NCBI GenBank assembly: GCA_964610335.1 | Contig: CAZSVP010000003.1 | Span: 13,531-77,530, forward strand | Length of the DNA stretch: 64,000 bases | Reading direction: 5' to 3' | Source: an uncultured Candidatus Saccharibacteria bacterium | GTDB taxonomy: Bacteria > Patescibacteriota > Saccharimonadia > CAILAD01 > BJGX01 | Part shown: positions 1,701 through 61,057 of the stretch, in pieces | How the letters are laid out: each line of letters opens with the position of its first letter | How positions within the stretch are numbered: the first letter of the stretch is position 1 | The notes under the pieces: model-generated | What the model saw: only the letters and a program-made list of their open reading frames with translations | The model's database searches: none | Told to the model about the DNA's origin: nothing | Made by a program: the position numbers and the translations under genes

Positions 1701-3458
1701 ATGAGTGAAACAGACCCCAAACGAATTGAAATTACCGCCCCCATCCAAGTGAGTGAATTTGCCAAGCTGCTTGATTTAAGCGCTGCCGATGTAGTGGGCG
1801 CGCTTATGCGCAATGGTGTTATGGCCACTATCAATGAAAGTATCGACTACGACACAGCTGCAATTATTGGTGGTGAGCTGGGCTTTGAAATAGCCGAAGC
1901 CCAAGCCGGGCGTGGCGAAACTGTCGAGGCTGTTGACGAGTCGTTGCTCAAACCTCGTCCACCGGTGGTGGCCGTGATGGGCCATGTCGACCATGGCAAG
2001 ACTAGCCTGCTCGATGCTATCCGCAGTAGTAAGGTGGCAGCCGGTGAGGCTGGTGGCATCACTCAACACATTGGTGCTTACCAAGTTGAGCGCAAAGATC
2101 GAATTATTACTTTTCTCGACACTCCTGGTCACGAAGCCTTCTCGGCAATTCGTGCTCATGGCGCCAAGACTGCCGATATTGCAATTATTGTGGTAGCTGC
2201 CGACGACGGTGTGAAGCCCCAGACCAAGGAGGCTATTGAGCACGCCAAAGCCGCCAATGTAAGTATAGTAGTAGCTATTAACAAGATCGATGCCAGTGGT
2301 GCTGATGTCAACCGTGCCAAGCAAGAGCTTAGTGAGATTGGTGTGGTAGCCGATGATTGGGGCGGTGACATTCCAACTGTTGGAGTTTCTGCCAAGACCG
2401 GTGAAGGCATTGAGAACCTACTTGATGTAGTGTTACTGGTTAGTGACATAGCTGAGCCCAAGGCTCGCGTTGAGGGCATGGCACGTGGCGTAGTGATAGA
2501 GTCACATCTTAGTACTGGACAGGGCCCAGTTGCTTCGGCACTTATTCAGGAGGGTACACTCGATGTTGGTGATTGGATCGTACTCGAAGATGGTTACGGC
2601 AAGGTACGCAGTTTGCAAGATTTTCGTGGTAAGCGCATCAAGTCGGCTACACCAGCCACTCCGGTAGTGATATCTGGCCTCAAAGAATTGCCCAACTACG
2701 GTGATTGGATCGAAGAGGTTGAGAGTGAGCGAGCTGCTAAGGATTGGGCTACCAGCCAAGCTCGCAAACAAAGTGCCAAGTCGCTGGTGAATGTAAAGTC
2801 ACTTAGTAGCGCCGACCTAGCTCGAGCCGTTGCTGAGGGTGATCGTAAAGAGCTCAACATCATAGTCAAAGCCGATGCCCAGGGCTCACTCGAGTCGCTA
2901 CAGAGCGCACTAGAACAAATCGGCAACGACAAGGTTGGCGTTAAGATAGTCTCTATTGGGATTGGCGACATTACAGAGAGTGATATCAATGCTGCTACAG
3001 CTAGTGGTGCTATTATAGTTGGCTTCCATGTCAGTATTGCCGCCGCAGTCAATCAGCTGGCCAAACGCGCTGATGTAGAGTTCCGTTTGTACAAGATCAT
3101 CTACGAACTACTAGATGACATTCGCAGCTGGCTACTAAGCCTGTTGCCACCAGAAATAGTTGAGACCGAGATGGCTCGGCTTAAAGTACTTGGTGTATTT
3201 GGAGCGCGCAAGAAAGTCCAAACTGTTGGCGGCCAAGTTGTAAGTGGCAAAATTACTCCTGAGCTAAAGGTAGCCGTAATGCGCGGCAAAGAGCGGGCCG
3301 GTGAAGGCAAGCTACAGAGTCTACAACGCAACAAAGAGGTAGTTAAACAAGTCGCTGAAGGCGATGAGTGTGGAATGCAAATAGAATCCAGTACTACCAT
3401 CGCTATGGATGACGAGCTGATGTTTTACAAGACCGAAGAAAAACCACCGACACTATAG
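1701..3458 (+). CDS. infB: Translation initiation factor IF-2 (short form)
   Basis: GTP-binding motifs [21 protein letters not shown] and NKID, plus an IF-2 C-terminal domain. An AAGGAAA RBS precedes the ATG at 1701; a GTG alternative exists at 1677. Confidence 0.9.
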
Positions 3459-4279: not shown

Positions 4280-4879
4280 ATGCCAGCCAAATCCAACGTC
4301 CGTAAGAGTACTAGTAAATCTGGAGGGTTTAAGTTTCGATGGTGGATGGGTTTGGGGTTAGTGCTAGTAATAGCACTTGTTGGATTATTGGTACTTAGGT
4401 TTAGTAAGGCAGGTACTGCTGCTCTAGTCACTTGTGGCAACTACCCTCCAAATATTTCAAATGTTAGCATGCAGTATGTCTACAACAAGGGCACGCCCAA
4501 TACTCAAAATGTTTGTATGATGAAGTCGCCTTATGCATTTTCGCCACTAGGCACTAAGATTACACCAGGCGCAGCTGCTACGTACTGTGTAAAAGGGAGA
4601 TACGTAGGGGATATTAGCTTTACAGCTATAGCTTATACGCCAAACAATACTACGTTCTCATCGCAACCCTCAAACCTAAGTGCGGCTAACTCATATGTAA
4701 GGGGGTTTGGTAACAATTGGATAGCAGACCCTGTGCCAGGTACAGGTGGAGGGGATGTTACGCTGGCCTGTACCAGAGTGCAAACTCCTGATGGAGCAAC
4801 ATCAAGAATTGATTTTGTTTCGCATGGCAATGGGCTAGTTTTTATGCACGCAATAGATGTAGTTGACATCCATAACTAG
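4280..4879 (+). CDS. MPAKSNVR-family membrane-anchored protein, paralog 1
   Basis: N-terminus MPAKSNVRKSTSKSGGFKFRWWMGLGLVLVIALVGLLVLRFS is a basic segment followed by a single TM, conserved with the ORFs at 4973, 5585 and 47430. The C-terminal domain is variable and Cys-containing. Confidence 0.6.
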   Translation: MPAKSNVRKSTSKSGGFKFRWWMGLGLVLVIALVGLLVLRFSKAGTAALVTCGNYPPNISNVSMQYVYNKGTPNTQNVCMMKSPYAFSPLGTKITPGAAATYCVKGRYVGDISFTAIAYTPNNTTFSSQPSNLSAANSYVRGFGNNWIADPVPGTGGGDVTLACTRVQTPDGATSRIDFVSHGNGLVFMHAIDVVDIHN

Positions 4880-4910
4880 TACTTACCTAAGGATAGAAGC
4901 TTTAGTAATC

Positions 4911-4940
4911 TTGACAGGTTTAGTAATGTTCTCGTACTAT
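4911..4940 (+). promoter_or_regulatory. Putative sigma70-like promoter of paralog 2 (TTGACA -35, TACTAT -10)
   Basis: cTTGACAggtttagtaatgttctcgTACTATtagcat, followed by an AAGGAAAA RBS and the ATG at 4973. It is nearly identical to the promoter at 5518. Confidence 0.4.
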
Positions 4941-4972
4941 TAGCATAATAAGTAAAACAAGGAAAACTAAAT

Positions 4973-5449
4973 ATGCCAGCTAAATCAAATGTTCGTAATG
5001 GTGCCAGTAAATCTGGAGGCTTTAAGTTTAAGTGGTGGATGGGTGTTGGGCTCGTAGCTATTATCGCTGTTATTGGAGTGGTGATTGTACGATTTAGCAA
5101 CGCTTCTACTCTAAATCAATATGACCAGAAAATTACTAAGAATAGCAGATACGGTTCACCATTTCCAGAGCCAGTGTATGCTTCAAGCCTTTGTTCTAAT
5201 ACAACCTTTCCAAAATATCTAGATACGTACTCAGCGGGTAGATTTGTATACTGTGGAAGATTTATAGATAATGGTCACATAAGGTGGGCTAGGAATAATG
5301 GTAATAACTCTACTACTTGTGCCGAAATCCAAAGAATTGGGGTTGGACCAAATAAAACAAGGGCATACTTTGTTATTGACGATGAAGACTCAAGTGATCT
5401 AGATACTGGGAAAACAGTTTTAATTGTAGAAAGGCCTTGTTCTGAGTAG
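4973..5449 (+). CDS. MPAKSNVR-family membrane-anchored protein, paralog 2
   Basis: About 70% identical by eye to the ORF at 5585 along its full length, sharing NGHIRW..NG.NS.TCAEIQRIG.GPNKTRAYFVID.E.SSDLDTGKTVL..ERPCSE. Confidence 0.6.
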   Translation: MPAKSNVRNGASKSGGFKFKWWMGVGLVAIIAVIGVVIVRFSNASTLNQYDQKITKNSRYGSPFPEPVYASSLCSNTTFPKYLDTYSAGRFVYCGRFIDNGHIRWARNNGNNSTTCAEIQRIGVGPNKTRAYFVIDDEDSSDLDTGKTVLIVERPCSE

Positions 5450-5469
5450 CGTTTACTGAAAATAACCAT

Positions 5470-5495
5470 TAATGAACGCGCTTGCGTTCATTTTT
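5470..5495 (+). terminator. Rho-independent terminator hairpin (aatgaacgcgcttgcgttcatt followed by a T-run)
   Basis: Perfect inverted repeat followed by TTTTT. It is duplicated, with a changed loop, at 6093. Confidence 0.6.
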
Positions 5496-5517
5496 GATTT
5501 ACTCAAGTTTCGGTAAG

Positions 5518-5549
5518 CTTGACAGGTTTGCTTTTTTTTTTGCTACTAT
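5518..5549 (+). promoter_or_regulatory. Putative promoter of paralog 3 (TTGACA -35, TACTAT -10)
   Basis: gcTTGACAggtttgcttttttttttgcTACTATttg, followed by an AAGGAAAA RBS and the ATG at 5585. Confidence 0.4.
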
Positions 5550-5584
5550 TTGATTAACTAAGTAACAAACAAGGAAAACTTAAT

Positions 5585-6070
5585 ATGCCAGCTAAATCAA
5601 ATGTTCGTAAGGGTGCCAGTAAGCCTGGAGGCTTTAAGTTTAAGTGGTGGATGGGTGTCGGGCTTGTAGCTATTATTGCTATCATTGGAGTGGTGATCGT
5701 ACGATTTAGCAACGCTTCTACAATAAGCCAATATGACCAACAAATTACTAACAATAGCAGAGGAATACCAAGTCCTCAGGATCCAACAGGTATTGGTGCT
5801 TTCCAATGTGGTGGTAGTGGCTTTAACAAATTTGTACAAGGAACGACAGCTGGAAAGTTTTGGTTCTGTGGATATTTTCATGACAACGGCCATATTCGAT
5901 GGGTAAGAGATAATGGAAGTAACTCATTTACATGTGCGGAGATTCAGCGAATCGGACAAGGTCCCAATAAAACTCGTGCCTATTTTGTTATTGATAATGA
6001 GAACTCTAGCGATCTAGATACCGGCAAAACAGTACTATTTATTGAGAGACCTTGCAGCGAAGGGCGATAG
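5585..6070 (+). CDS. MPAKSNVR-family membrane-anchored protein, paralog 3
   Basis: See paralog 2. It is a tandem duplicate that includes the 5' UTR and the terminator. Confidence 0.6.
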   Translation: MPAKSNVRKGASKPGGFKFKWWMGVGLVAIIAIIGVVIVRFSNASTISQYDQQITNNSRGIPSPQDPTGIGAFQCGGSGFNKFVQGTTAGKFWFCGYFHDNGHIRWVRDNGSNSFTCAEIQRIGQGPNKTRAYFVIDNENSSDLDTGKTVLFIERPCSEGR

Positions 6071-6074
6071 TTAA

Positions 6075-6986
6075 TTACTTCAGGTATCCATTAATGAACG
6101 CTTCGGCGTTCATTTTGGTTTTGCCGGCAGGTTGAAGTTCGAGTATCTCGAGGCTACTATCTTCGCAACCAAAATACAGTTTTTTGTCGGCAACAGTTAG
6201 TTTGCCAGCTGGGGTTTTTTGATCTGAAACTGAAGCTCTGTGAATTACAATTCGCAAGTCGTTCATGTCTAGGTAGCTCTTCGGCCAGCCAGCATAAGCG
6301 CATACCTCATACTCTAGCTGGGTTGCAGACTTACTTGGATCAAGATGTCCGTCAGTTTTGGCTATGCGTTTGGTGAAAGTTGGCTCACCAGATTGTGGCG
6401 AGGGCTGCAACTTGTCATTGATTATTGCTGGTAGGGTTTCTACCAATAGATCCGCGCCCATACTACCTAGTTTGTCCACCAATTCTTGTTTGGTTTCGGT
6501 ACCAGAAAGCTTAAGTTCGCGCTGAGCATAGACTGGGCCAGCATCCATCTCGGCTACTAGCTTCATGAGCGACACACCGGTCTTGGTATCGCCTTGCAGT
6601 ATGGTACTCTCGATTGGTGTGGAGCCACGTAGCTGTGGCAACAGTGATGGGTGGATATTGATTATACCCATTGGGAACATATCTAGCACTTGTTGAGGCA
6701 CAATTTGTCCAAAAGCCACCAGTATACCAAGTTCGCTGCGGTGTTTGGCTACCTTGTCTGCCAAGGAGATTTTGTGGCCAGGTAGGATAACTGGTATACC
6801 GTGCTGGTGTGCCAACGTACCTATCTCGAGCTCACGACTCTGGCGTGACACACTGTCGACGTGATTGGCTATCACGGCCTCTATCTCGTAGCCGGCTTTG
6901 ATGAGAGCATTCAATACAGGTACCTTTGTGGTAGTACCAGTAGCAAGCCGTTCATTACCAAAAAAAACTATTTTAGGCTTAGTCAT
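6075..6986 (-). CDS. fmt: Methionyl-tRNA formyltransferase
   Basis: MTKPKIVFFGNERLA... N-terminus and a formyltransferase core (HPSLLPQLRG). It is the last gene of the priA-def-fmt operon. The track ORF extends to 7010. Confidence 0.85.
   Translation of the reverse strand: MTKPKIVFFGNERLATGTTTKVPVLNALIKAGYEIEAVIANHVDSVSRQSRELEIGTLAHQHGIPVILPGHKISLADKVAKHRSELGILVAFGQIVPQQVLDMFPMGIINIHPSLLPQLRGSTPIESTILQGDTKTGVSLMKLVAEMDAGPVYAQRELKLSGTETKQELVDKLGSMGADLLVETLPAIINDKLQPSPQSGEPTFTKRIAKTDGHLDPSKSATQLEYEVCAYAGWPKSYLDMNDLRIVIHRASVSDQKTPAGKLTVADKKLYFGCEDSSLEILELQPAGKTKMNAEAFINGYLK
6093..6118. terminator. Rho-independent terminator (aatgaacgcttcggcgttcatttt), possibly bidirectional for convergent fmt
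   Basis: Inverted repeat with a T-run, sitting between convergent genes. Confidence 0.6.
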
Positions 6987-11921: not shown

Positions 11922-12198
11922 AGGATTTCGCCCTTACGTCCAGTCCAATTTTGCTCAGTCAAAAGCGGTGCAACCTGCCGGCAGGCAGGAACCGTTCTGC
12001 TCGGACTTCCTAGTTAGACGTTATCAAATCAGCAAGTGAAAGCTCCTAAACGCTTTTGTCTGAGCACTGGTTTATCCAGGGGCGGAAGACAGAAAGAGAA
12101 GGAGCTTGAAACGCTGCTTGATTTTATATAGTCGACAAAGACTTTTGGCTACTTTTGGTATATTCAAAAGTAGCTTGGTCCTTTAGGAGCGAAATCCT
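11922..12198. repeat. Copy 1 of an intergenic repeat family: a roughly 277-bp element with terminal inverted repeats AGGATTTCGC...GCGAAATCCT (MITE-like or structured ncRNA)
   Basis: The perfect 10-bp TIRs extend imperfectly to about 16 bp. Blocks are conserved with the element at 60820 (AGGATTTCGYCCCTTACG, CCGTYCKGCTCGGACTTC, GGAGCTTGAA, GGAGCGAA). Internal hairpins are present, and there is no ORF of 60 aa or more. Confidence 0.5.
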
Positions 12199-33554: not shown

Positions 33555-34721
33555 CTAAGAGCCAACGATGTAGAGTTCTTGCTCGGCTCGGGTGACTGCC
33601 GTATATAGCCAGCGGCGCCAATCTTGCTCACTCATTTTGGAAAACCGCTCTTCAAACACTAGTACCTTTTGGGCTTGCGAGCCTTGAGCTTTGTGCACTG
33701 TAAGTCCATAGCCGAAGTCAAATAGTCCGACCAAGTCTGCCTTGTCGCGTTTGGGCGCGCGTGACATGGTAGTGGTTTCGCCAAACTGAGCCCGTGGCAC
33801 GTAGCCGTCGAAGCGCAGGCCATCGAAGTTGGCCTGCATATGCCACCATAGCTGATCAATGTCATCGTCGGCCGTAGTGATTGACTCGATCACACCGAGC
33901 TGGCCATTGGCCAAGCCACTTTCGTGATTGTTGCGCAAACACACGATGGTATCACCAGCTTTGGGCTCAGCGCCTTCAAAACCTTTGAGCTGGCGGACAT
34001 GTGCATTGAGTCGCTGGCGCGTGTGATTGTAGCCACACAGCACCATAGTGTCACTAGTGTGGGAGTGCAGTATTGCCTCTACCACATCGCCGGTTTCGCC
34101 ATTACTGCGATCGAGCTTGCGCACACTTGCGGAGTAGTCACCGATTGGGATAATGCCAGATGTGCGAGCCATAGTCGCGAGCTGGATGATAGGGCTATCG
34201 GCCGCTTGACGCCAGATCTTTTCGAGCCGCAGTTCGGGCTCATCCATGAGATTAAATGTAGAGTTGATCGGTGGTAGCTGACCATGGTCACCAACTGCCA
34301 ATATTGGCTTGTCAAAACTCAGAGCGTCGTCCCAGATCTCTTCGTTGACCATACTCGCCTCGTCGATAATTATTAGATCACACTTTAGCTCCTCGCGTTT
34401 TTTGAAGAAGAAGCCACCATCAGCCCGCTCTTGGCGACGGTACATCAGGCTATGTAGGGTACTGACAGTGTCGCTACTTTGCAGTATTTTGGCTTCGCGC
34501 AGCCGATTCTTGAGTACTAGGGCAGCTTTGCCGGTGTAGGCTGCAAAGCCCACTTTCATAGAGGGCTTGTTCTTGTGTAGCACCTGGCGCAGGGCTGCTA
34601 GCAAGGTGGTCTTGCCCGTGCCGGCATAACCACCGAGAGTGATGTACTGTTTGTCGGGATCTTTGAGCCACTGACCTATGGAAGTCAGCGCAGCGGCTTG
34701 ATCGGCGGAATACTTTTGCAT
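33555..34721 (-). CDS. Superfamily-1 DNA helicase of the RecD/Dda/TraA-like type (AAA_30 plus UvrD_C_2)
   Basis: Walker A GYAGTGKTTL, Walker B LIIDEASM, and C-terminal motifs VHKAQGSQ and TAVTRA. At 388 aa it is a small phage- or plasmid-type helicase. Confidence 0.8.
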   Translation of the reverse strand: MQKYSADQAAALTSIGQWLKDPDKQYITLGGYAGTGKTTLLAALRQVLHKNKPSMKVGFAAYTGKAALVLKNRLREAKILQSSDTVSTLHSLMYRRQERADGGFFFKKREELKCDLIIIDEASMVNEEIWDDALSFDKPILAVGDHGQLPPINSTFNLMDEPELRLEKIWRQAADSPIIQLATMARTSGIIPIGDYSASVRKLDRSNGETGDVVEAILHSHTSDTMVLCGYNHTRQRLNAHVRQLKGFEGAEPKAGDTIVCLRNNHESGLANGQLGVIESITTADDDIDQLWWHMQANFDGLRFDGYVPRAQFGETTTMSRAPKRDKADLVGLFDFGYGLTVHKAQGSQAQKVLVFEERFSKMSEQDWRRWLYTAVTRAEQELYIVGS

Positions 34722-39004: not shown

Positions 39005-41521
39005 ATGCTAACATCCGAAACCAAGAAACATATCGATGCTGCCCGCCAGGTTTTGGTTGGGAAAGTGCCGGACCCAAAACAACAGATAGATCAGATTACG
39101 AATGCGCTGATTTATAAGTTCATGGATGACATGGATATTAAAGCTAAAGATGCCGGCGGTAAAGCGTCGTTCTTTACGGGTGATTTAGAGCAATATGCAT
39201 GGACAAAGCTAATGGATCCACGCAAGGGTGCTCAGGAACGGCTCAATATGTACACTGAGGCGTTAGAAAAGTTTAGCACTGCCAATCAACTGCCGCAATT
39301 ATTCCGCGATATCTTTCGCCAGGCCTTTTTGCCATATCGCGACCCAGAAACCCTCAACTTGTTTCTAAAAGAAATTGAATATTTTGACTACAACCATTCT
39401 GAAGAGCTTGGTAATGGGTTTGAATACTTGCTAAGTATTATGGGCTCGCAGGGCGATGCCGGACAGTTCCGCACTCCACGACACATTATTGATTTTATTG
39501 TAGATATTATCGACCCAGACAAAGACGATACCATTCTGGACCCAGCTTGCGGTACGGCTGGATTCCTTATTAGTGCCTACAAACACGTAGTAGGAAAGCA
39601 CGATGGGGTGGACGAAGATGGCAAAAAGAACGAAGAAGTACCGTTAACACACCAAGAAAAACAAAAGCTCATGGGCAACCTAGAGGGTTACGACATCAGT
39701 AGTGATATGGTGAAGCTTGCCAGGGTAAATATGTACTTACATGGCTACAATCAACCCAAGATTTTTGAGTACGATAGCCTAACTAGTGAAGAGCGCTGGA
39801 GCGATAGTTTTGACGTAATCTTAGCCAACCCGCCATTTATGAGTCCAAGGGGTGGTATTCGCCCACATAATAAATTTGGCGTGGAATCTTCTCGTGCCGA
39901 AGTGTTGTTTGTTGACTACATTATGAGCCACCTCAAGCAGAATGGTCGCGCTGGTATTATTGTGCCAGAGGGCATCATTTTCCAAAGCGGCAAAGCGTAC
40001 AAACAACTCCGCAAAGCTTTGGTTGAAGATGGGCTATTGGCAGTTATTTCTTTGCCGGCTGGAGTATTTAACCCATATTCTGGTGTGAAAACCAGTGTCT
40101 TGGTCTTTGACAACAATAGCGCCAGGAAATCGAGCAGTATTCTATTTGCCAAAGTTGAGAACGACGGATTCGATTTGGGAGCACAGCGTAGGCCAATTGC
40201 CAAGAATGATTTGCCAGCACTTGCCATGCTGCTTAGAAAGTATAGAGAAAAACCCAATGCAGATATTAACTCGTTAAAGGATGAGCTTGTTAAATCCAAA
40301 GATTTTTTTACTATTGGTAAAAGCACAATAGGTGGGCAAGATGCAATCGGCTCTCCAGAAGATTTTAGGCACTTAGAAGTCGCAACAGTTAGTAGGACCG
40401 AACTCGCAAAAACAGGTGAATATAACCTGAGCGCTTCGCGCTATGTTGTTGCGGAAGTAAGTCAAAACCAAAAATGGCCGATGATTGCTATAGACGAAGT
40501 AGCTGAAGTTAAGCGTGGAACGTCAATTACAAGTCGAGATTTGCTGGAGGGTAATGTACCGGTCGTAGCAGGCGGCCAAAAACCGGCGTATTACCATAGT
40601 CAGGCAAATAGAGAGGCGCCGGTTATTACTGTTAGCGGTTCTGGTGCTTACGCAGGCTTTATTAACTACTTTACAGAGCCAATATTTGTTTCGGATTCTT
40701 CCTCTGTCAAGTCAAGTAATGAAAATACGGTATTAACACGCTACCTCTATTGGGTACTTAAAGGTAACCAGGAAAAAATTTACGCTTTGCGAAGCGGAAT
40801 GGCGCAACCACATGTCTATGCTAAAGATTTGGCTAAATTCCAAATTCCATTGCCGCCGATTGAGGTGCAGAAAGAAATTATTGCTGAATTAGATGGCTAC
40901 CAAAAAATCATCGATGGAGCCCGCCAAATCATTGAAATCTACAAGCCCACGATAAAAACTGATCCTGCTTGGGATGTTGTAAAACTTGGTGATATTGGTC
41001 CAGTTAGGATGTGTAAAAGAATATTGAAACACCAGACTACCAATAATAATACCGATATACCGTTCTTTAAGATTGGTACATTTGGCAAAAAGCCTGATGC
41101 ATATATTCCACAGAATGTTTACCAAGAATATAAATCAAAATACCCATTTCCCAATAAGGGCGACGTTTTGATAAGTGCATCTGGTACTATCGGAAAGACT
41201 GTTGTTTATGACGGTAAACCAGCTTATTTTCAGGATAGCAATATCGTCTGGATTGAAAACAACGAAAAACGAGTTACCAATTCCTACTTAAATGTAGTAC
41301 TGCAAAGCATAAAATGGAATGCTCAAATAGGAGGGACTATAGCACGACTATATAACGATATTATTATGAATACTGAGGTAGTCTTGCCACCCATTGGAGT
41401 ACAGCAACAGCTTACTAAGGAGTACGATGAAGAAGCTAGAATAATTGACGCGAATAAAAGACTGCTTAAGATTTATGAGCAAAAAATACAGGACAAAATC
41501 GCCGAGGTTTGGGGAAATTAA
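39005..41521 (+). CDS. hsdM: Type I restriction-modification methyltransferase fused to the specificity subunit (HsdM-HsdS fusion, two TRDs)
   Basis: HsdM N-domain, AdoMet motif I (DPACGTAGFL), NPPF motif IV (LANPPFMSP), and then about 350 aa containing two HsdS-type target-recognition domains and conserved spacer helices. Confidence 0.85.
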   Translation: MLTSETKKHIDAARQVLVGKVPDPKQQIDQITNALIYKFMDDMDIKAKDAGGKASFFTGDLEQYAWTKLMDPRKGAQERLNMYTEALEKFSTANQLPQLFRDIFRQAFLPYRDPETLNLFLKEIEYFDYNHSEELGNGFEYLLSIMGSQGDAGQFRTPRHIIDFIVDIIDPDKDDTILDPACGTAGFLISAYKHVVGKHDGVDEDGKKNEEVPLTHQEKQKLMGNLEGYDISSDMVKLARVNMYLHGYNQPKIFEYDSLTSEERWSDSFDVILANPPFMSPRGGIRPHNKFGVESSRAEVLFVDYIMSHLKQNGRAGIIVPEGIIFQSGKAYKQLRKALVEDGLLAVISLPAGVFNPYSGVKTSVLVFDNNSARKSSSILFAKVENDGFDLGAQRRPIAKNDLPALAMLLRKYREKPNADINSLKDELVKSKDFFTIGKSTIGGQDAIGSPEDFRHLEVATVSRTELAKTGEYNLSASRYVVAEVSQNQKWPMIAIDEVAEVKRGTSITSRDLLEGNVPVVAGGQKPAYYHSQANREAPVITVSGSGAYAGFINYFTEPIFVSDSSSVKSSNENTVLTRYLYWVLKGNQEKIYALRSGMAQPHVYAKDLAKFQIPLPPIEVQKEIIAELDGYQKIIDGARQIIEIYKPTIKTDPAWDVVKLGDIGPVRMCKRILKHQTTNNNTDIPFFKIGTFGKKPDAYIPQNVYQEYKSKYPFPNKGDVLISASGTIGKTVVYDGKPAYFQDSNIVWIENNEKRVTNSYLNVVLQSIKWNAQIGGTIARLYNDIIMNTEVVLPPIGVQQQLTKEYDEEARIIDANKRLLKIYEQKIQDKIAEVWGN

Positions 41522-41555
41522 GCGTTTACACAATTAACGATTGGGGTTTAACGTA

Positions 41556-42980
41556 CTATTTATCCCCTTGAGGTGCTTTTCTGGAGTTCTCAACAATCGA
41601 GCCAGTCATATTTATTAGTTCTTTTGGAGACATAAAATCAAACATTATCCTCTGCCAGGTACCACCAAATATTGCACAACTCATAACTTTACCATCAATT
41701 TTTGCTGTGATAACAGGAACCTTATTATTACCGAATAACTCACGTAAGAGCGGGTCGGCATATTTTTGCTCGTAAGAGCTCATATTTCTAGTTTCAAAAT
41801 CAAAGCCGTTTATTTTCATCAAGTGCTTGAGGGCAGGTATGTGTAAATATACTAGCAAAAACTCCTCTCCTGCCATTAACTTGCTTTGTCTTTGCATGCC
41901 TAAAGTTTCAGAAAACAACAAACTTCTAGGTTTGATTGTTTGGATGCCCATCATATGTTGTAGCGCAAAGACGGGTAGCTTTTGTGCTTGTTCCGCTATC
42001 AAACCTAAATCATAACGCTCGTTAATTCTAAACCTAAAGAACCGCTCGTCTATACTTGTTAATGGCTTACTGCCGTATGCAAAGAAAATACAATAGTCTA
42101 CCAACCCAGTAGCGTATTTAGCACCGTTAGTTTCCATATCTTTTATTACACTTCTGACGGCTACAGACCAGCTCTTTTCATCACGCTTCTCTTCTAGTAT
42201 TGTTATATTTTCGTCCGTTTTGATATTGGTACGTACTTTACTACCCCAGCCACGATACTTGAGCGCGGTACTAGCTCTTTGATGTTGACGTAAAGTTCTG
42301 GTTACTTGTTTGGAGGTTTCAATAGGATTTTTAGACCTGGTTAGCAAGGCCTCGGCCTTTGTTTTGAACTCCTCTATATCTTTACTCGAAAAGGTTTCAA
42401 GTATTTTGAAGTTTACTTCGCCGGTCTTTACCTCTATTAGTTGATTTACCCCAGTTTTGGTATTTAAGCAATAAAAGTCGCATATTTGAAAGAAACTCGT
42501 TAAATCTGTCGCAAATGCGAATTGATTAGGGTCTTTATTAAAGTGGTCGAGTGATTTTTGTATACTCCGCCAGTTTTGCACCTCTAAAGGGCTATGCTTT
42601 TTAGGCTCTAGAAATACGTTCCTAATCGCACTAATATCGTGTTTTAGCATTATCCAAGCAATGCAGTCAGCATAATCTCTCAGAAGGGCAAAAATGTAGT
42701 GTTCATTATATGGCTTTTCAAACTCTAAGTTTTTGGATTTTAGGGCTTTCTCTAGTTTTAAGCGTTCCTTAATAATAATCTTCTGGGCTTCTTTGTATGA
42801 CCAATTTACGAAAGTACTAAACTCTATCCGCTTTTCTTTGGTGGCAAAAATAGAGTGAGTGATTTTAGGGCTTAACTCCTTAATACCATTTACTTGTGCA
42901 TACTTTTCGAAACCGGCACTAAAGCAGTATTTGTTAAGATCGCGAATGATTTTATGGACGTACTTTTTGGATACCAGCAT
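41556..42980 (-). CDS. Unknown 474-aa protein co-oriented with hsdR and 10 bp downstream of it. It has a possible PD-(D/E)xK-like motif, and an R-x4-H (HEPN-like) dipeptide pattern is present.
   Basis: AT-rich ORF with no P-loop. Candidate motif …ATDL…CDFYCLNTKTGVNQLIEVKTGE (D…(14)…E-V-K after a hydrophobic strand). RTLRQH is present. Its position is inside the RM locus. Confidence 0.55.
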   Translation of the reverse strand: MLVSKKYVHKIIRDLNKYCFSAGFEKYAQVNGIKELSPKITHSIFATKEKRIEFSTFVNWSYKEAQKIIIKERLKLEKALKSKNLEFEKPYNEHYIFALLRDYADCIAWIMLKHDISAIRNVFLEPKKHSPLEVQNWRSIQKSLDHFNKDPNQFAFATDLTSFFQICDFYCLNTKTGVNQLIEVKTGEVNFKILETFSSKDIEEFKTKAEALLTRSKNPIETSKQVTRTLRQHQRASTALKYRGWGSKVRTNIKTDENITILEEKRDEKSWSVAVRSVIKDMETNGAKYATGLVDYCIFFAYGSKPLTSIDERFFRFRINERYDLGLIAEQAQKLPVFALQHMMGIQTIKPRSLLFSETLGMQRQSKLMAGEEFLLVYLHIPALKHLMKINGFDFETRNMSSYEQKYADPLLRELFGNNKVPVITAKIDGKVMSCAIFGGTWQRIMFDFMSPKELINMTGSIVENSRKAPQGDK

Positions 42981-42990
42981 TCAAGGCTCG

Positions 42991-45468
42991 TTAATCCACA
43001 ACTTTTTCTAGCACATAGTCGCGGGCGTATTCAGGTATGCGTTTGCGGAGGGATTCGGGCAAATTAGTCCATTCGTCCATTTTGAGCCCTGTAAAGTTTA
43101 ACTCGGCAAAGCGTCCACTATCGATTAGTTCACGTACGTGTGGATCGGTTGCATACGCCGTAAATACATCGCGAGCAGAGCTGTACTGTCCAGGCTCTAC
43201 ACCTTCGTTCTGTACAAACTCTTCAAATTCATCGAGCACAACTTCGTCTTTGCTTTGGAAATTGTCTCTATCGCCAAAAGCAAATTCTAATATTTCTTTA
43301 ATATTTGGGCGCCGATCTAACTTAAAGGCTTTTTTGAACTGGTTGCGGCTAATAAATAGGTTCGGCTTATCAAAGTGTTTTTCAACTACAGCTTTTTCGG
43401 CGCCATATACGTCTCCAGATCTGTAAAGCTCGGCGACTTCTGTATCTGCAGCAATTGCTTGCTTGGCTTTTTCGCCCCAAACTTCTCGGTCTACCCGCAT
43501 ACCTTCAACACTAATTTGCTCTTCTTTGATCGTTTTGAGGTAATCTGCCCGGGCGGCATCGAGTTCCTCTGTAATATAGCGCTTCGTGCCCTCTGGGTCT
43601 TCGGTATTTTTGGTGCCAACTGTTGGGGGTAGCTTGAGTTGTTCGTCATAATTAAACTTTTCTTCAAAGTATTCACATACAGCAAAGAAATCAAAAAGCT
43701 TATAAGCAGTTTTGTCGATAGTAATAACTTCGTTTTGCTGGTCTTCGTAATTAAATTTGGCACGCCTAGTACCGCGGCCTTTCATCTGGATAAAATCAGC
43801 TGGGCTAAAAACTGGGCGCATGAAGGCTACATTTAGTAGGTCCGGGCAATCGTAACCAGTGGTCATCATACCAACCGTTACACAAACACGGGTACGGCTA
43901 GATTTGTAGGCATCTAAAAATCGAGTAGTGCCATTGAGGTTATTATTGGTAAAATTTGTGGTCATGTTTTGGCTGGCTTCGACATTGCTAGTAACTTGTA
44001 CGGCAAAGTCAGAGCTATATTTGCCGGGCCACTTCTTATCTGCGATTTGGTTTAATAGTTGAGTGATTTTGCTAGCGTGAGTTTGGCTTACGCAAAATAC
44101 CAAGCTTTTGCCTACTTCTTCGCTAATAGGGTCGCGCAGGGTGTTGTCTATAAAAGCTTCGCAGAAAGCCACGTTGGTATTTTCATTAAAGAATTTACGC
44201 TCAAAATGTCGGCTAAAGTATACCTGCATTTCTTCGTTACCTTCTTCGTCTTTGCGGTTAACTTCGTAGCCCTCTTCGCTTAAAAGCTGGGTAGTGATTT
44301 CTGTGCGGGCATCCACAACCGTTGGTTGGATAAGGTAACCTTCTTTGGCGCCACGTTTAAGATCGTAGCGGTAGGTGGGCTCGCCACTGTCGCAACCAAA
44401 CGTTTTGTAAGTGTCGAGTAGCTGGCGCCGCTCTTGGTCTTTTTGAGTTTCTTTATTATCTTCGGTGTTTTTAAGATAGTCTTTGGGCGTTGCAGTTAGC
44501 CCAAGTTTGTAACCTATAAAGTATTCAAATACACTACGCGAGTTACCGCCAATAGAGCGATGGGCTTCATCCGATATTACTAAGTCGAAATCTGTTGGAT
44601 CAAACTCCCTTTTGTAGCGATCACCAGCCATAAGGGTTTGAACTGTAGAAACAACAATGCTGGCTTTGCGCCAATCGTCTTTGTTTTCTTTGTAAATACA
44701 AGAAATAAAATCGTTTTTAATATCCTTAAAGCCTTTAAGTGCTTGGTTTTCTAATTCAATTCTGTCTACCAAGAACAGTACGCGGCTGGCATTGCCAGTG
44801 TGGAGAAAAAGTTTGGCAATAGCTACGGTTGTTAGAGTTTTGCCAGTACCAGTAGCCATCTCGAGCAGATATCGCTCTTTGCCGTTTTTTGCAGCCTCTT
44901 GAATTGCATGGATAGCCTCAAGTTGATAATTACGTAAAAACTTTAGTCCATGACGGTCGTTGAACGCCAGACGTTGATTGCCGTCTGCTAACCAATCTGG
45001 GTCTTCAGCGTAATTTGGCATTTGCGTTAGGGCAATATAGTCTTCACTAACTTTTTCAGCTGCCAGTACTTTGTGATCAGGTTTATAATTTTCTAAATCG
45101 AGCAGTGATTTTTGCGAAGGGTAGTCAGTAATGAGTTTCTCAGTGCCGTGCTCAGTGTCCCAAAAGTAGTGGATATTGCCGTTGCTTAAAATAATAAAAC
45201 GAGCTTTGTTATTGCGTGCATATTCACGTGCCTGTTCTTTGCCGTCAAGTGGGTTCTTACCTTCTCGCTTGGCTTCAAGTACAACTAGCGGAAAGCCTTT
45301 GTCATCCAGGAGAAGATAATCAATAAATCCATTTTTGGTATGCTCAAAATCCTCGCCGAGGTCATCGAGCTTAACACCAGCTTCAACTTTGATGCTTTTC
45401 TCAAACTCCCAGCCTGCTTCTTCTAGGAGTTTGTTAATTTTTATTCGAGCCGAGGCTTCTTTACTCAT
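42991..45468 (-). CDS. hsdR: Type I (or Type III-like) restriction enzyme R subunit: an N-terminal PD-(D/E)xK nuclease plus an SF2 helicase
   Basis: N-terminal Mrr/HsdR-type nuclease (…VLEAKREGKN…), Walker A MATGTGKTLT, DEAH box VISDEAHRS, and helicase motifs VI QMKGRGTR. Confidence 0.85.
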   Translation of the reverse strand: MSKEASARIKINKLLEEAGWEFEKSIKVEAGVKLDDLGEDFEHTKNGFIDYLLLDDKGFPLVVLEAKREGKNPLDGKEQAREYARNNKARFIILSNGNIHYFWDTEHGTEKLITDYPSQKSLLDLENYKPDHKVLAAEKVSEDYIALTQMPNYAEDPDWLADGNQRLAFNDRHGLKFLRNYQLEAIHAIQEAAKNGKERYLLEMATGTGKTLTTVAIAKLFLHTGNASRVLFLVDRIELENQALKGFKDIKNDFISCIYKENKDDWRKASIVVSTVQTLMAGDRYKREFDPTDFDLVISDEAHRSIGGNSRSVFEYFIGYKLGLTATPKDYLKNTEDNKETQKDQERRQLLDTYKTFGCDSGEPTYRYDLKRGAKEGYLIQPTVVDARTEITTQLLSEEGYEVNRKDEEGNEEMQVYFSRHFERKFFNENTNVAFCEAFIDNTLRDPISEEVGKSLVFCVSQTHASKITQLLNQIADKKWPGKYSSDFAVQVTSNVEASQNMTTNFTNNNLNGTTRFLDAYKSSRTRVCVTVGMMTTGYDCPDLLNVAFMRPVFSPADFIQMKGRGTRRAKFNYEDQQNEVITIDKTAYKLFDFFAVCEYFEEKFNYDEQLKLPPTVGTKNTEDPEGTKRYITEELDAARADYLKTIKEEQISVEGMRVDREVWGEKAKQAIAADTEVAELYRSGDVYGAEKAVVEKHFDKPNLFISRNQFKKAFKLDRRPNIKEILEFAFGDRDNFQSKDEVVLDEFEEFVQNEGVEPGQYSSARDVFTAYATDPHVRELIDSGRFAELNFTGLKMDEWTNLPESLRKRIPEYARDYVLEKVVD

Positions 45469-47429: not shown

Positions 47430-49136
47430 ATGGCTGCATCAAGCAAACCAAGATCCAATACCTCAAAAAAACCCACTAAGGGTGCTGGTTTTCAGTTTCG
47501 ATGGTGGATGGTGGCGGTACTAGTAGCCGCAGTAGCAGTTATTGGCATAGTGGTTATACGGTTTAGTCGAGCTGGTATAGACTCGGTGATTCTTAGAAAT
47601 CCCTATGAGGCTCACAACTATGGGGCAGCTGCGTTGCAAGAAGGCAACACACATCACTTCTTCTGGTGTGGTTGGAACACTTACCTCGATGCTGAGGGCA
47701 AGCCACAACAAGAAGAAGTGGTCTATTATCAAAGCCAAAATGGATTTAAAGGGCAGACTACCCAGGCTTATCCTACTATTAGCTCACGCAAAAAAAGTGG
47801 TGGCTGGGAAAACGGCTCTCACATGTGCGACCCCACAATTGTAATAGGTAGGTTTAACTATAAACAGAACACCTATAAGTATGCCTTGTACTACGATAGC
47901 GACCCCGATAACTCATCGAGACGTACCAAGATCGGGGTGGCGTTTACCAACGCTCTTTCTCCGGACCCTAATCATCCTACGCAATGGACGTTTGTAGATC
48001 ATCCAATAGTTTGCGAGTATGGCCCCAACAAGGACTTTTATGGAGTTGGCACTAGTAGCGCTATTGTTGACCCTAAAGATCCAAGTAAGGTGCAATTATT
48101 CTTTGTCGATACCTCTCATACATCTCCCAGCCTGCCCAACGATAAGCGATCTCAGGGCTTTGTGGTGACTGGCACAAATGGCTATGATTTTGGGTGGTCG
48201 GGCAATTGCCAGCTGTCTCCTAGCGCACCAAAGCCTAAAGCCATAAATACCAACAACCTAAATACCACTGCCTATGGCGACTTTAGCTATGACAAACAGA
48301 ACAATTGGTACTATGGTGTAATAGCCGATGGTGGTGCCATCCGCCAACCAATTCGTGGTGAGGGCGACCCACCTCTAGACCAAGGATTCTACTCTGAGTC
48401 TTATCAACAAATAATAGCTCGCATTCGCCCCGAGGCCTTGGTGGACTCTACCAAGGGTGGCTGGCAGATATTGGGTCATTATAACTCCGATTCCACCAAG
48501 AGTGCGCTCAACTTCAACCCGGGAATTTTACGCAATCCAAGTGGGTACTTGGACAACGAGGTAGCACCACTAATCGATGGTGTGCGAGAACTGTATATAT
48601 GGAATACCCAAATAGTACCAACTAACTTGGCCAGTGGCAGCGAAGATGCCAGCAATGATAGTGGTTTGCAAACCAGTGAGATCAGGCATACCAAGATCAA
48701 GCTGTATGTCTGGACTCCGGGGCGAGTACCGTTGGTAAGATACCTCGATACTACGACCGGTGAGCACGCTACTACCGAGAATGTTAAGCCAAAAGCCACC
48801 TACAAGTATGACAATCAGATCTTCTATGTATTGCCAGATCCCAATGGCATGACTGGCTGGCAGCCAATCTACTCGTGTGTTACAAGTGGTCCGTATGATT
48901 ACTTTCTCTCTACTCATGCCAACTGCGATGGGCATTTGCAACTAGGGCTTGTAGGCTATAGCTTTACTGGAGCTAATCCGCCCAACCTACCGGGGCGTTG
49001 GGTAAGACTCTACCGTTGCTGGTCAATAAACGGTAGTGGTGTAGGCGAAAACTTCATGACAAGCAGCCCACAGTGTGAGGGTAATACAAACCCAGTAGAT
49101 GCATCGTACGGCTGGGTATCTCTGGACCAAAAGTAA
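47430..49136 (+). CDS. MPAKSNVR-family paralog 4: the same basic-plus-TM N-terminus fused to a large extracellular domain of about 520 aa
   Basis: N-terminus MAASSKPRSNTSKKPTKGAGFQFRWWMVAVLVAAVAVIGIVVIRFS matches the family N-terminus. The long C-terminal domain has no recognisable catalytic motif. Confidence 0.6.
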   Translation: MAASSKPRSNTSKKPTKGAGFQFRWWMVAVLVAAVAVIGIVVIRFSRAGIDSVILRNPYEAHNYGAAALQEGNTHHFFWCGWNTYLDAEGKPQQEEVVYYQSQNGFKGQTTQAYPTISSRKKSGGWENGSHMCDPTIVIGRFNYKQNTYKYALYYDSDPDNSSRRTKIGVAFTNALSPDPNHPTQWTFVDHPIVCEYGPNKDFYGVGTSSAIVDPKDPSKVQLFFVDTSHTSPSLPNDKRSQGFVVTGTNGYDFGWSGNCQLSPSAPKPKAINTNNLNTTAYGDFSYDKQNNWYYGVIADGGAIRQPIRGEGDPPLDQGFYSESYQQIIARIRPEALVDSTKGGWQILGHYNSDSTKSALNFNPGILRNPSGYLDNEVAPLIDGVRELYIWNTQIVPTNLASGSEDASNDSGLQTSEIRHTKIKLYVWTPGRVPLVRYLDTTTGEHATTENVKPKATYKYDNQIFYVLPDPNGMTGWQPIYSCVTSGPYDYFLSTHANCDGHLQLGLVGYSFTGANPPNLPGRWVRLYRCWSINGSGVGENFMTSSPQCEGNTNPVDASYGWVSLDQK

Positions 49137-55332: not shown

Positions 55333-55520
55333 TAACTCCGGCCCAAAGCCTTTCTGTCCCAACCACTTGAGAAGTCAAGAAAGTGAATTGAGCAGTGGCG
55401 CTACTATCCGAGGACTGTTCGAACCCGAAGCAAAGCTTCGAGTGAGTTCCGCAGGATTGTAAGCTATTGAACAATGAATGTTTCTTGATTTGGAGCGTGG
55501 TCAAGGACTTTGCTTCTTTG
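55333..55520. repeat. Partial, inverted, divergent third member of the intergenic repeat family
   Basis: The reverse complement shares ctgcggaact and cttcg(g)gttcgaacagtcctcg blocks with the element at 60820 (…ttctgcggaacttg…gagcttcgaacagtcctcg…). It lacks the 5' TIR block. Confidence 0.3.
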
Positions 55521-55561
55521 GTCCGTCAAAGAAGGGGAAAACTTTGCTATAATACAAGATT

Positions 55562-60790: not shown

Positions 60791-60819
60791 TTAAACTGTA
60801 TTTTTTGTTAGGATTTCGT

Positions 60820-61057
60820 CCCTTACGGGCCGCCTAGCTTTTGTCTTGGCAAAAGCTTAGCAAAACCGTCCGGCTCGGACTTCATATCTAGAAGCGATCA
60901 AACTGTTCTCACTTTCTGTTCTGCGGAACTTGCTCTGGTATGTACCAGAGCTTCGAACAGTCCTCGAAACAGAAGTATTCAAATAGCTTGGTCTTTCTGA
61001 TCCTCGAGAGCCGGAGCTTGAAGCTGGTTCCAGGAGCGAAGCTTGGAGCGAAAAACT
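60820..61057. repeat. Copy 2 of the intergenic repeat family (5' AGGATTTCGTCCCTTACGG … 3' GGAGCGAAAAAC)
   Basis: Shares its ordered blocks with the element at 11922. Internal hairpins include gcttttgtcttggcaaaagc and ctctggtatgtaccagag. It sits between convergent parB and lepB. Confidence 0.5.

Follow-up and report, generated by a model that had tools for sequence, protein, structure and literature searches.

The 64-kb stretch of Saccharibacteria DNA analysed here, hereafter the window, carries three copies of an interspersed palindromic repeat, which is a real feature and no artefact, and whose unusual, potentially important property is a long core conserved across phyla. Units of this family recur at separate intergenic sites, fold into a hairpin architecture that is kept by compensatory changes, vary in presence and in allele between related genomes, and have no coding capacity. 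In behaviour, the closest known systems are REP/REPIN elements and MITEs. Our best explanation, which we hold at roughly even odds, is that these are REPIN/MITE-like, non-autonomous interspersed palindromic repeats, the conserved hairpin core of which is recognised in trans. The copies and their parts are listed below by position in the window, with scores from model R1, a covariance model of the apex that was built without any window sequence.

11922..12198, no strand assigned: copy 1, a 277-nt imperfect palindrome with family-type arms and no apex core.
11922..11936, plus strand: left terminal repeat of copy 1, AGGATTTCGCCCTTA, which pairs with 12184-12198 (pair I2, 15 nt, 87% complementary, 10 nt perfect).
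12184..12198, plus strand: right terminal repeat of copy 1, TAGGAGCGAAATCCT (pair I2), the minus strand of which resembles AGGATTTCGYCCYTTACG with 3 mismatches.
~55335..55545, minus strand: copy 3, a unit with arm type "B".
55409..55454, minus strand: apex core of copy 3 (model R1 53.9 bits, E 1.3e-13; exact pattern match).
60810..61057, plus strand: copy 2, a complete unit that runs from the 5' end AGGATTTCGTCCC through a small hairpin, a long-range stem, P1 and the apex core to a 3' arm with GGAGCGAAAAACT at its end.
60835..60859, plus strand: 5' hairpin of copy 2, TAGCTTTTG / CAAAAGCTTA (10 pairs predicted by RNAalifold from five units, 5 of the 10 kept through two-sided changes).
60870..60876, plus strand: 5' strand of the long-range stem of copy 2, CCGGCTC, which pairs with GAGCCGG at 61009-61015 (compensatory changes in 5 of 7 pairs).
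60921..60966, plus strand: apex core of copy 2, consisting of CTGCGGAACT, hairpin P2 (60932-60951) and TCGAACAGTCCTCG (model R1 47.8 bits, E 7.8e-12; exact pattern match).

A sequence-only reading of this DNA had described three related elements on the basis of shared blocks, and both shuffle controls and the covariance model confirm that the copies are real and that the blocks are shared above chance. Copies 1 and 2 have AGGATTTCG(Y)CC(C)TTACG in common, as well as a 39-nt block with 79% identity (repeat family D10). The string AACCGTYCKGCTCGGACTTC, also common to both, gives two matches where 0.02 are expected, a count that was reached in 0 of 100 shuffles, and this control, together with model R1, rejects chance as the source of the similarity. 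On its minus strand, copy 3 matches copy 2 exactly in CTGCGGAACT and TTCGAACAGTCCTCG, and the hairpin enclosed by these two blocks is of equal length and different sequence in the two copies. The boundaries originally proposed are right for copy 1, whereas copy 2 starts at 60810 rather than 60820 and copy 3 extends over approximately 55335-55545.

As originally described, all three copies are intergenic and two of them lie between convergent genes. Copy 1 is flanked by secF and a convergent gene encoding 224 aa, and copy 2 by parB and a convergent gene for a Peptidase_S26-family signal peptidase. Copy 3 is found between two plus-strand genes, upstream of and antisense to a pyridine-nucleotide disulfide oxidoreductase gene, which we read as a probable trxB from its Pfam Pyr_redox domains and N-terminal sequence. 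No ORF of at least 40 aa is present inside copy 1, and coding capacity is absent from every unit of the family. The 8.9 kb beyond the end of the window contain no additional copy, which leaves three copies in ~73 kb of this genome.

Alignment of the window copies with units from related contigs reveals that the Saccharibacteria element is an imperfect palindrome of ~200-280 nt, the aligned oriented unit measuring ~220 nt; units of the family measure 90-280 nt. The unit consists of a 5' end (AGGATTTCG... or the variant TTTTCGCTCC), followed by a small hairpin (CTTTTG...CAAAAG), a long-range stem (CCGGCTC/GAGCCGG), P1, the apex and a 3' arm that pairs back onto the 5' arm. The copy 1 counterpart of the small hairpin of copy 2 is at ~11948-11968. 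Arms come in two types, A and B, which are approximately reverse complements of each other. This aligned anatomy identifies the previously reported terminal inverted repeat as the closing stem of a long imperfect palindrome. The perfect 10-bp inverted repeat is present in copy 1 as reported (first bases AGGATTTCGC at 11922, last bases GCGAAATCCT at 12198) and can be extended to 15 nt at 87%, but it is the base of the palindrome rather than a sharp terminus. In copy 1 and in a close relative (L124), the inverted symmetry runs on into the flanking DNA, so that the termini are not sharply defined, and the ends of copy 2 show only imperfect or partial pairing.

Copies 1 and 2 fold far more stably than shuffled sequence. 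Copy 1 has z-scores of -5.5 and -5.9 on its two strands, and the values for copies 1 and 2 on both strands range from -2.8 to -5.9. From five Saccharibacteria units, RNAalifold predicts 35 pairs, 16 of which are still paired after two-sided changes. The covarying hairpin reported from the first inspection is thus borne out, since compensatory changes keep helices paired both in the RNAalifold analysis of the five units and in a covariation test on stem P1a (below). The same compensatory-change signal is, however, produced by DNA palindromes and by structured RNA, and because correction of one arm by the other could generate such changes without selection, they are no proof of function.

The best-conserved part of the unit is the hairpin apex, not the termini. 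In copies 2 and 3 this apex is asymmetric, with CTGCGGAACT followed by the variable hairpin P2 and then (T)TCGAACAGTCCTCG. The predicted fold of the core consists of a short conserved helix formed by CUGCGGAACU with AGUCCUCG, which contains fixed bulges, the variable hairpin P2, and a single-stranded stretch of six bases, UCGAAC. In the consensus fold the pairs are C1-G14, G3-C13, G5-C11, G6-C10, A7-U9, C9-G8 and U10-A7, while U2 and A8 are bulged, C4/U12 form a mismatch, and UCGAAC is unpaired beside P2. When the entire 64 kb were scored with model R1, everything outside the cores of copies 3 and 2 scored at most 9.5 bits. No match was detected in copy 1 up to E<=10. The homology between the copies originally proposed is therefore valid, with the correction that copy 1 has no apex motif detectable by this model; from its sequence, copy 1 appears to be a degenerate or apex-less variant of the family. 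At the three pairs adjoining the core, 68, 54 and 58 of the 72 sequences have a Watson-Crick combination, with all four pair types used, and covariation in this helix (P1a) exceeds that in 500 of 500 shuffles and in all slid controls.

Conservation of the core far outside the Saccharibacteria lineage, which the earlier inspection of a single stretch could not have seen, became apparent when the apex pattern, with 24 specified bases, was searched for in metagenome contigs. There are 84 exact matches on 83 contigs, against ~0.3 expected by chance according to our own estimate from an assumed collection size. The contigs bearing the core range from 33% to 71% in G+C. Cores identical in every base are spread over at least four phyla of bacteria, with carriers among the Saccharibacteria, Gracilibacteria, Elusimicrobia, Spirochaetota and Halieaceae (Gammaproteobacteria). 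These assignments come from neighbouring proteins, i.e. an exact match to DnaK for Candidatus Gracilibacteria, an exact protein match for Elusimicrobia, a UbiD 94% identical to that of a MAG so named for Spirochaetota, and a NuoC/D protein in a 90%-identity cluster with a Parahaliea protein for Halieaceae. In each lineage the stems flanking the core have their own sequence and retain their pairing. With model R1, 71 copies were detected in 381 kb of non-redundant metagenome loci versus none in 745 kb of unrelated control loci, which were taken from chance matches of an earlier pattern scan of a genome collection. No match to the core was found in viral contigs or plasmids. A shorter 18-nt pattern (16 specified bases) retrieved 119 loci from genome contigs, all of which proved to be chance matches, including one on a Saccharibacteria contig with unrelated sequence. 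Half-sites of the form CTGCG-N-CTCG flanking the core were considered as a general feature and dismissed, as they occur in only ~16 of 63 sequences, all of one subfamily.

Because the stems around the core share nothing but pairing, its conservation would imply a specific, portable molecular partner or activity. One tentative proposal, to which we give clearly less than even odds, is that this split core of 24 nt, fixed bulges and variable hairpin included, constitutes a functional module of nucleic acid that has not been described before and moves from phylum to phylum. It would be either a new class of small RNA that cleaves itself or recruits a protein, or the hairpin through which a new class of mobile element, acting as single-stranded DNA, is recognised by an enzyme of its own. 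If so, the Saccharibacteria repeats would be one lineage-specific carrier of the core.

Copies elsewhere are also dispersed, and their orientation relative to flanking genes in the metagenome loci is mixed. Ten loci have a second copy. Seven of the pairs are convergent doublets spaced 150-320 nt apart (L124, L139, L135, L159, L164, L175 and L202), as against one weak divergent pair. In Spirochaetota, ~270 nt are common to copies at six or more different sites, which sit between, and antisense to, housekeeping genes of the menaquinone pathway. Every one of these Spirochaetota copies starts sharply at a sigma-70-like sequence, TTGTCC-17 nt-TAATAT. One variant has a terminator-like hairpin and T-run just past the core region, and another continues into 46-nt tandem repeats. 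Presence is variable here as well, with two copies in the 8.9 kb of one contig (L145) versus none in the 17 kb of a 94% relative (L228), and the gap between ubiA and the next gene measures 600 nt in the former versus 165 nt in the latter.

Comparable turnover is seen among close relatives of the Saccharibacteria genome. At the secF site of relatives in which SecF is 70-79% identical, the gene overlaps its convergent neighbour or is separated from it by ~21 nt, and no family copy was found anywhere in the 16-21 kb of these secF loci. In a 93% relative (L124), the same gap is 451 nt versus 309 nt in the window and contains a convergent doublet of opposite arrangement. The doublet is self-complementary (62% over 431 nt), and its inverted unit is closest not to copy 1 but to copy 2 of the window, with 86.9% identity over 206 nt. 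In strains at 99-100% identity, copy 1 is nearly unchanged (99.7%, contigs L211/L212). The parB site varies even among contigs with 100% identical ParB, which show three alleles: the A-type unit of the window, a B-type unit with an apex, and a B-type unit with an unrelated centre. The B-type element of L217 is 77.5% identical over 200 nt to copy 3 of the window, whereas the L222 allele has kept its arms and has no core. Seven of the 10 contigs matched by ParB end 50-146 nt past parB, as expected of an assembly at a repeat. One strain, represented by a single contig (L211/L217), has copy 1 at 99.7% and yet differs from the window in its parB-site element, so that either a single site turns over fast relative to the genomic background or old alleles have been shuffled by recombination. 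With empty orthologous sites and differing alleles in near-identical strains, the family behaves as mobile or fast-turnover DNA.

These sites also bear on whether the copies might simply be intergenic hairpins that are inherited vertically, for example as bidirectional terminators or as 3' structures that stabilise mRNA, and that look like a family owing to selection of similar hairpins at gene ends. Copies 1 and 2 do lie between convergent genes, their structures are very stable, and REP-like elements are known in terminator and mRNA-stabilising roles (PMC3733652). However, the T-rich tract precedes rather than follows the hairpin of copy 2, copy 3 is antisense and upstream of the putative trxB, sites are empty in related genomes, and an identical 24-nt core in other phyla cannot come from convergence. 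We therefore disfavour this explanation, which we consider improbable. A terminator model of the element itself was likewise set aside, with T and A tracts on the wrong sides of the hairpin.

The interpretation as non-autonomous repeats recognised in trans draws on the same observations. Copies are multiple and dispersed, with two at several loci; insertion is polymorphic at the secF site and at the Spirochaetota ubiA site; alleles turn over at the parB site; doublets are REPIN-like in their convergent bias; the distribution is patchy across phyla with lineage-specific stems; and the symmetry is that expected of DNA, with Watson-Crick stems, equal G-U counts, mixed orientation and no promoter-like site ahead of the window copies. 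Several observations run against it. No direct repeats indicative of a target-site duplication are evident at the ends of copies 1-3 or of the L124 units, filled and empty sites are too diverged for alignment at the base level, and no duplication can be defined at the secF, parB and Spirochaetota ubiA sites, the flanks of which have diverged or been replaced. In Saccharibacteria, alleles differ over the whole intergenic region, with no sharp common terminus. Rather than reflecting new insertions, the alleles at parB could go back to old polymorphisms that homologous recombination has shuffled. The conservation peak is internal, unlike in MITEs, and a 24-nt core shared across phyla far exceeds the 4-nt tags of REPs and is more typical of catalytic or protein-binding RNAs.

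Nor is a mobilisation gene apparent. Among 20 window proteins analysed with Pfam, none is a transposase, HUH protein, recombinase or reverse transcriptase. When the 1228 ORFs of 61 non-redundant loci were compared all against all by BLASTP, only same-genome duplicates emerged; no neighbour family recurs, which is in keeping with mobilisation in trans. No related autonomous IS with matching ends is present in the window or recurs near these 61 loci, and there is no RAYT-like gene within ~73 kb of this genome.

Our inference as to the recognised form, the enzyme and transposition itself is as follows. The folded core would be the recognition site for a factor acting in trans, most likely as single-stranded DNA during replication or repair and possibly as RNA. 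By analogy with RAYT/Y1-HUH proteins acting on REP hairpins, this factor may be a hairpin-specific nuclease or recombinase. It would copy or move units into intergenic DNA, often beside an existing unit and facing the other way. By recombination, either of one copy with another or of the two arms of a single copy, apices could then be swapped, inverted or erased, which would give rise to the A and B arm types, the doublets, the apex-less copy 1 and the alternative alleles at one site.

Units share features with each of the known systems but differ from all of them in defining ones. A REP is a palindrome of 20-40 nt with an unpaired 4-nt GTAG or CGTC tag at one end; REPs are intergenic, mostly between convergent or co-directional genes, occur in many copies and in pairs of opposite orientation, share the asymmetric tag across taxa on differing stems, and have no adjacent transposase (PMC3733652). 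The present family resembles REPs and REPINs as a set of multi-copy, non-coding intergenic palindromes that form inverted pairs, combine an asymmetric conserved part with differing stems, and lack an adjacent transposase. Inverted doublets that would form a larger hairpin are frequent, as in REPINs. On the other hand, units are much longer (90-280 nt), conservation centres on a split core of 24 nt at the tip of the hairpin, there is no GTAG or CGTC tag and hence not the palindrome-tag combination of a REP, and the ~73 kb of this genome lack a RAYT gene.

Similarly, units resemble MITEs such as Correia/NEMIS, RUP and ERIC/IRU, in that they are short, non-coding and foldable, may have inverted repeats at their ends (clear in copy 1, partial in copy 2), occur as dispersed intergenic copies with filled and empty orthologous sites, and include internal variants and mosaic forms. 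Their size of 210-280 nt is well within the range of these elements (<~500 bp). Unlike in MITEs, neither a target-site duplication nor a parent IS sharing the ends was found, conservation is highest in the middle of the element rather than at its ends, and the same core is found in several phyla on unrelated arms. To our knowledge, the known MITE families are lineage-specific. The original alternative of a MITE or a structured non-coding RNA is upheld in part, with neither option wholly right or wrong. It is upheld in describing a multi-copy, non-coding family with compensatory helices and mobile behaviour; it is not upheld as regards a target-site duplication, none of which could be defined, a transposase or autonomous partner, which was not seen, best-conserved termini, G-U bias or, for the window copies, an upstream promoter.

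The core as proposed here, a hairpin with imperfect pairing, extrahelical bases at fixed positions and a variable hairpin at its end, also recalls integron attC sites and the subterminal hairpins of IS200/IS605 elements (PATEs). In those systems, strand-specific recognition by IntI or TnpA works through the extrahelical bases of imperfect hairpins, and the combination of symmetric stems with an asymmetric core in this family fits the same logic. However, attC sites are found in cassette arrays and are conserved only in the AAC/GTT boxes at their base, and in IS200/IS605 elements tnpA or tnpB is enclosed by ends that sit on one and the same strand. This family shows neither arrangement. No integrase or TnpA/TnpB gene was found near family loci or in the window.

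The main alternative is that the functional entity is RNA, in which case a new structured module, be it a small ribozyme that cleaves itself or a motif that binds protein, would be carried on multi-copy repeats and read from the CUGCGGAACU...UCGAACAGUCCUCG strand. The repeats would then owe their spread to a selfish or useful RNA or carrier. We regard this as possible, though less probable than recognition in trans of a non-autonomous repeat. The arrangement of invariant nucleotides in an asymmetric internal loop between helices that diverge among lineages and yet remain paired, with covariation reached by 0 of 500 shuffles, is a signature typical of ribozymes and riboswitch-like motifs. The core is identical from 33% to 71% G+C in at least four phyla, and its strand asymmetry is unneeded for a role purely in double-stranded DNA. 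Furthermore, the Spirochaetota subfamily resembles a transcription unit, with its sigma-70-like start and, in one variant, a terminator-like end. As in the small ribozymes known on repeats (hammerhead, twister, hatchet and pistol), a compact invariant core is combined with covarying helices, a patchy distribution among phyla and multiple copies.

Other properties argue against an RNA. Although the conserved structure is compensated, as in structured RNAs, its stems are ~95% Watson-Crick and the G-U pairs show no strand bias (71 on the forward versus 71 on the reverse strand in P1, and 17 versus 22 in P2), and the reverse strand folds slightly better than the forward strand. A search ahead of the window copies brought up no sigma-70-like promoter, and no terminator-like site coincides with the window elements in the expected sense. 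With neither a G-U strand bias nor an upstream promoter, a dedicated non-coding RNA gene is at most putative. Orientation relative to neighbouring genes is mixed, and copy 1 and the L222 allele keep their arms and not the core. Unlike the small ribozymes, the family matches no Rfam ribozyme model, even at permissive E-values, and by inspection the core fits neither the hammerhead motif (CUGANGA...GAAA) nor the loop motifs of the hairpin ribozyme. The core may nevertheless act as RNA, for instance as a ribozyme.

The Rfam searches originally proposed as a check, which cover the window and 32 related loci, show that the family matches no Rfam family. With Rfam 15, the whole window has no match at gathering scores and no tRNA gene; copy 1 and 12 related loci give only chance-level matches at E<=10; and 20 further loci contain only tRNA genes at gathering scores. 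These results bear directly on the possibility of a diverged known housekeeping RNA (RNase P, 6S, SRP, tmRNA, OLE, raiA or HEARO/omega RNA) or of chance similarity. The minus strand of GCTCGGACTTC reads GAAGUCCGAGC, which we take to be loosely reminiscent of the conserved RNase P region GGAAAGUCCGGGC, and the closing stem is like that of 6S RNA or RNase P RNA. Against this, three copies per 64 kb at variable and sometimes empty sites add to the Rfam results, and chance similarity is rejected by the shuffle controls. For the families in Rfam 15, a diverged known RNA is refuted, and we consider this whole group of explanations very improbable. RNase P, 6S, SRP, tmRNA, HEARO and the ribozyme families were rejected individually, with no match in either gathering or E-value mode.

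Several other identifications were considered and dropped. A tRNA-like core was suggested by a T-arm (GGAC-UCGAACA-GUCC) that is found only in the gammaproteobacterial subfamily, and ARAGORN finds nothing. Hammerhead and hairpin-ribozyme motifs, a LexA box (GAAC-N4-GTTC), an ECF-type promoter, dif and attC, all compared by eye, misfit in spacing or symmetry.

A limited literature search by sequence string and topic retrieved no description of this element, and no MITE or REP family reported for Saccharibacteria. Like other Patescibacteria, Saccharibacteria have tiny, tightly packed genomes in which repeats are, as far as we know, scarce. Given this scarcity and the lack of reported families, an active repeat family bears on how these genomes change. 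Model R1 offers a direct handle for a census of the family. Identification of the partner of the core may uncover a recombinase or nuclease system specific for hairpins, or else a small ribozyme or RNA-protein module, new in either case, and would also explain one class of breaks in metagenome assemblies.

Across the entire 64-kb window, which carries three intergenic copies of the palindromic family, there are no tRNA genes and no Rfam families at the gathering threshold. Apart from the family, the window contains a tandem array of paralogues, a G+C-rich stretch and a restriction-modification system, whose features are listed below.

Annotated features of the window (window positions; strand where assigned)
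4280-4879, 4973-5449 and 5585-6070: three paralogous genes in tandem
33555-34721, minus strand: RecD-like SF1 helicase
39005-41521, plus strand: fused N6 methylase and specificity subunit
within 39005-45468: unknown 474-aa gene of the type I restriction-modification stretch
42991-45468, minus strand: HsdR-like helicase

The three tandem paralogues (4280-6070) have in common a block of 138-195 nt with 69-91% identity, a fourth and weaker copy of which (47430-47580) is located where the 568-aa gene at 47430 begins. A similar hairpin lies 3' of each tandem paralogue (coordinates include 5453-5500 and 6075-6122). G+C is elevated (0.55-0.59) between 33000 and 38500, where both strands display numerous overlapping ORFs and where, in addition to the helicase, a GGDEF protein and a CvpA-trypsin fusion are encoded. 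The type I restriction-modification system occupies 39005-45468. Because G+C is low around it (0.37-0.43, versus ∼0.47 elsewhere), this stretch is suggested to be an acquired island.

At the parB site, the intergenic site of window copy 2, a contig encoding an identical ParB carries a different allele (L222:1436-1530). It retains the family arms but has an unrelated centre, CTGGCTTAGCCACTGCGCCAAGGATTGGACTCGTGGTCTGCAACCAG, in place of the canonical apex. Words like those of the tRNA D-arm and T-arm occur, in permuted order, in the reverse complement of this centre; ARAGORN identified no tRNA at L222:1436-1530.

Subfamilies of other lineages, which have the same apex core on stems of their own, display further sequence features. 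In gammaproteobacterial loci (L131, L139, L150, L153, L158, L159 and others), there is a second conserved island close to the base of the long hairpin (5' arm ACGGSCRTAAG, 3' arm CTTAAAGCGYGSCCT), which bears a loose likeness to CCCTTACGGGCC of the Saccharibacteria A-type arm. One variant of the Spirochaetota element (L137, L143, L162, L172, L173, L178 and L182) is extended 3' of the apex region by a tandem array of a 46-nt unit, CTCAGTGACCNCCTGTCGAAGCACGGTTGGTGAGCACTTCGGCAGG, present in one to three copies. The period is not divisible by three, and contigs differ in how many copies they carry. A second short palindrome, TGCAGGCGCTYAAGCRCCTGCR, unrelated to these elements, recurs in their vicinity (L145, ∼5930-5990 and ∼3100-3140; L182, ∼50-90) and may represent a separate REP-like family.

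In one subfamily (L133, the L137 group, L151, L164, L166 and L206), direct copies of CTGCG-N(2-3)-CTCG are found on both sides of the apex hairpin, at fixed distances of -25 and +19/20. Since these flanking copies share the frame of the core's own two outer ends (CTGCG...CCTCG), the apex core looks like a CTGCG/CTCG-type site split by GAACT-hairpin-TCGAACAGT.
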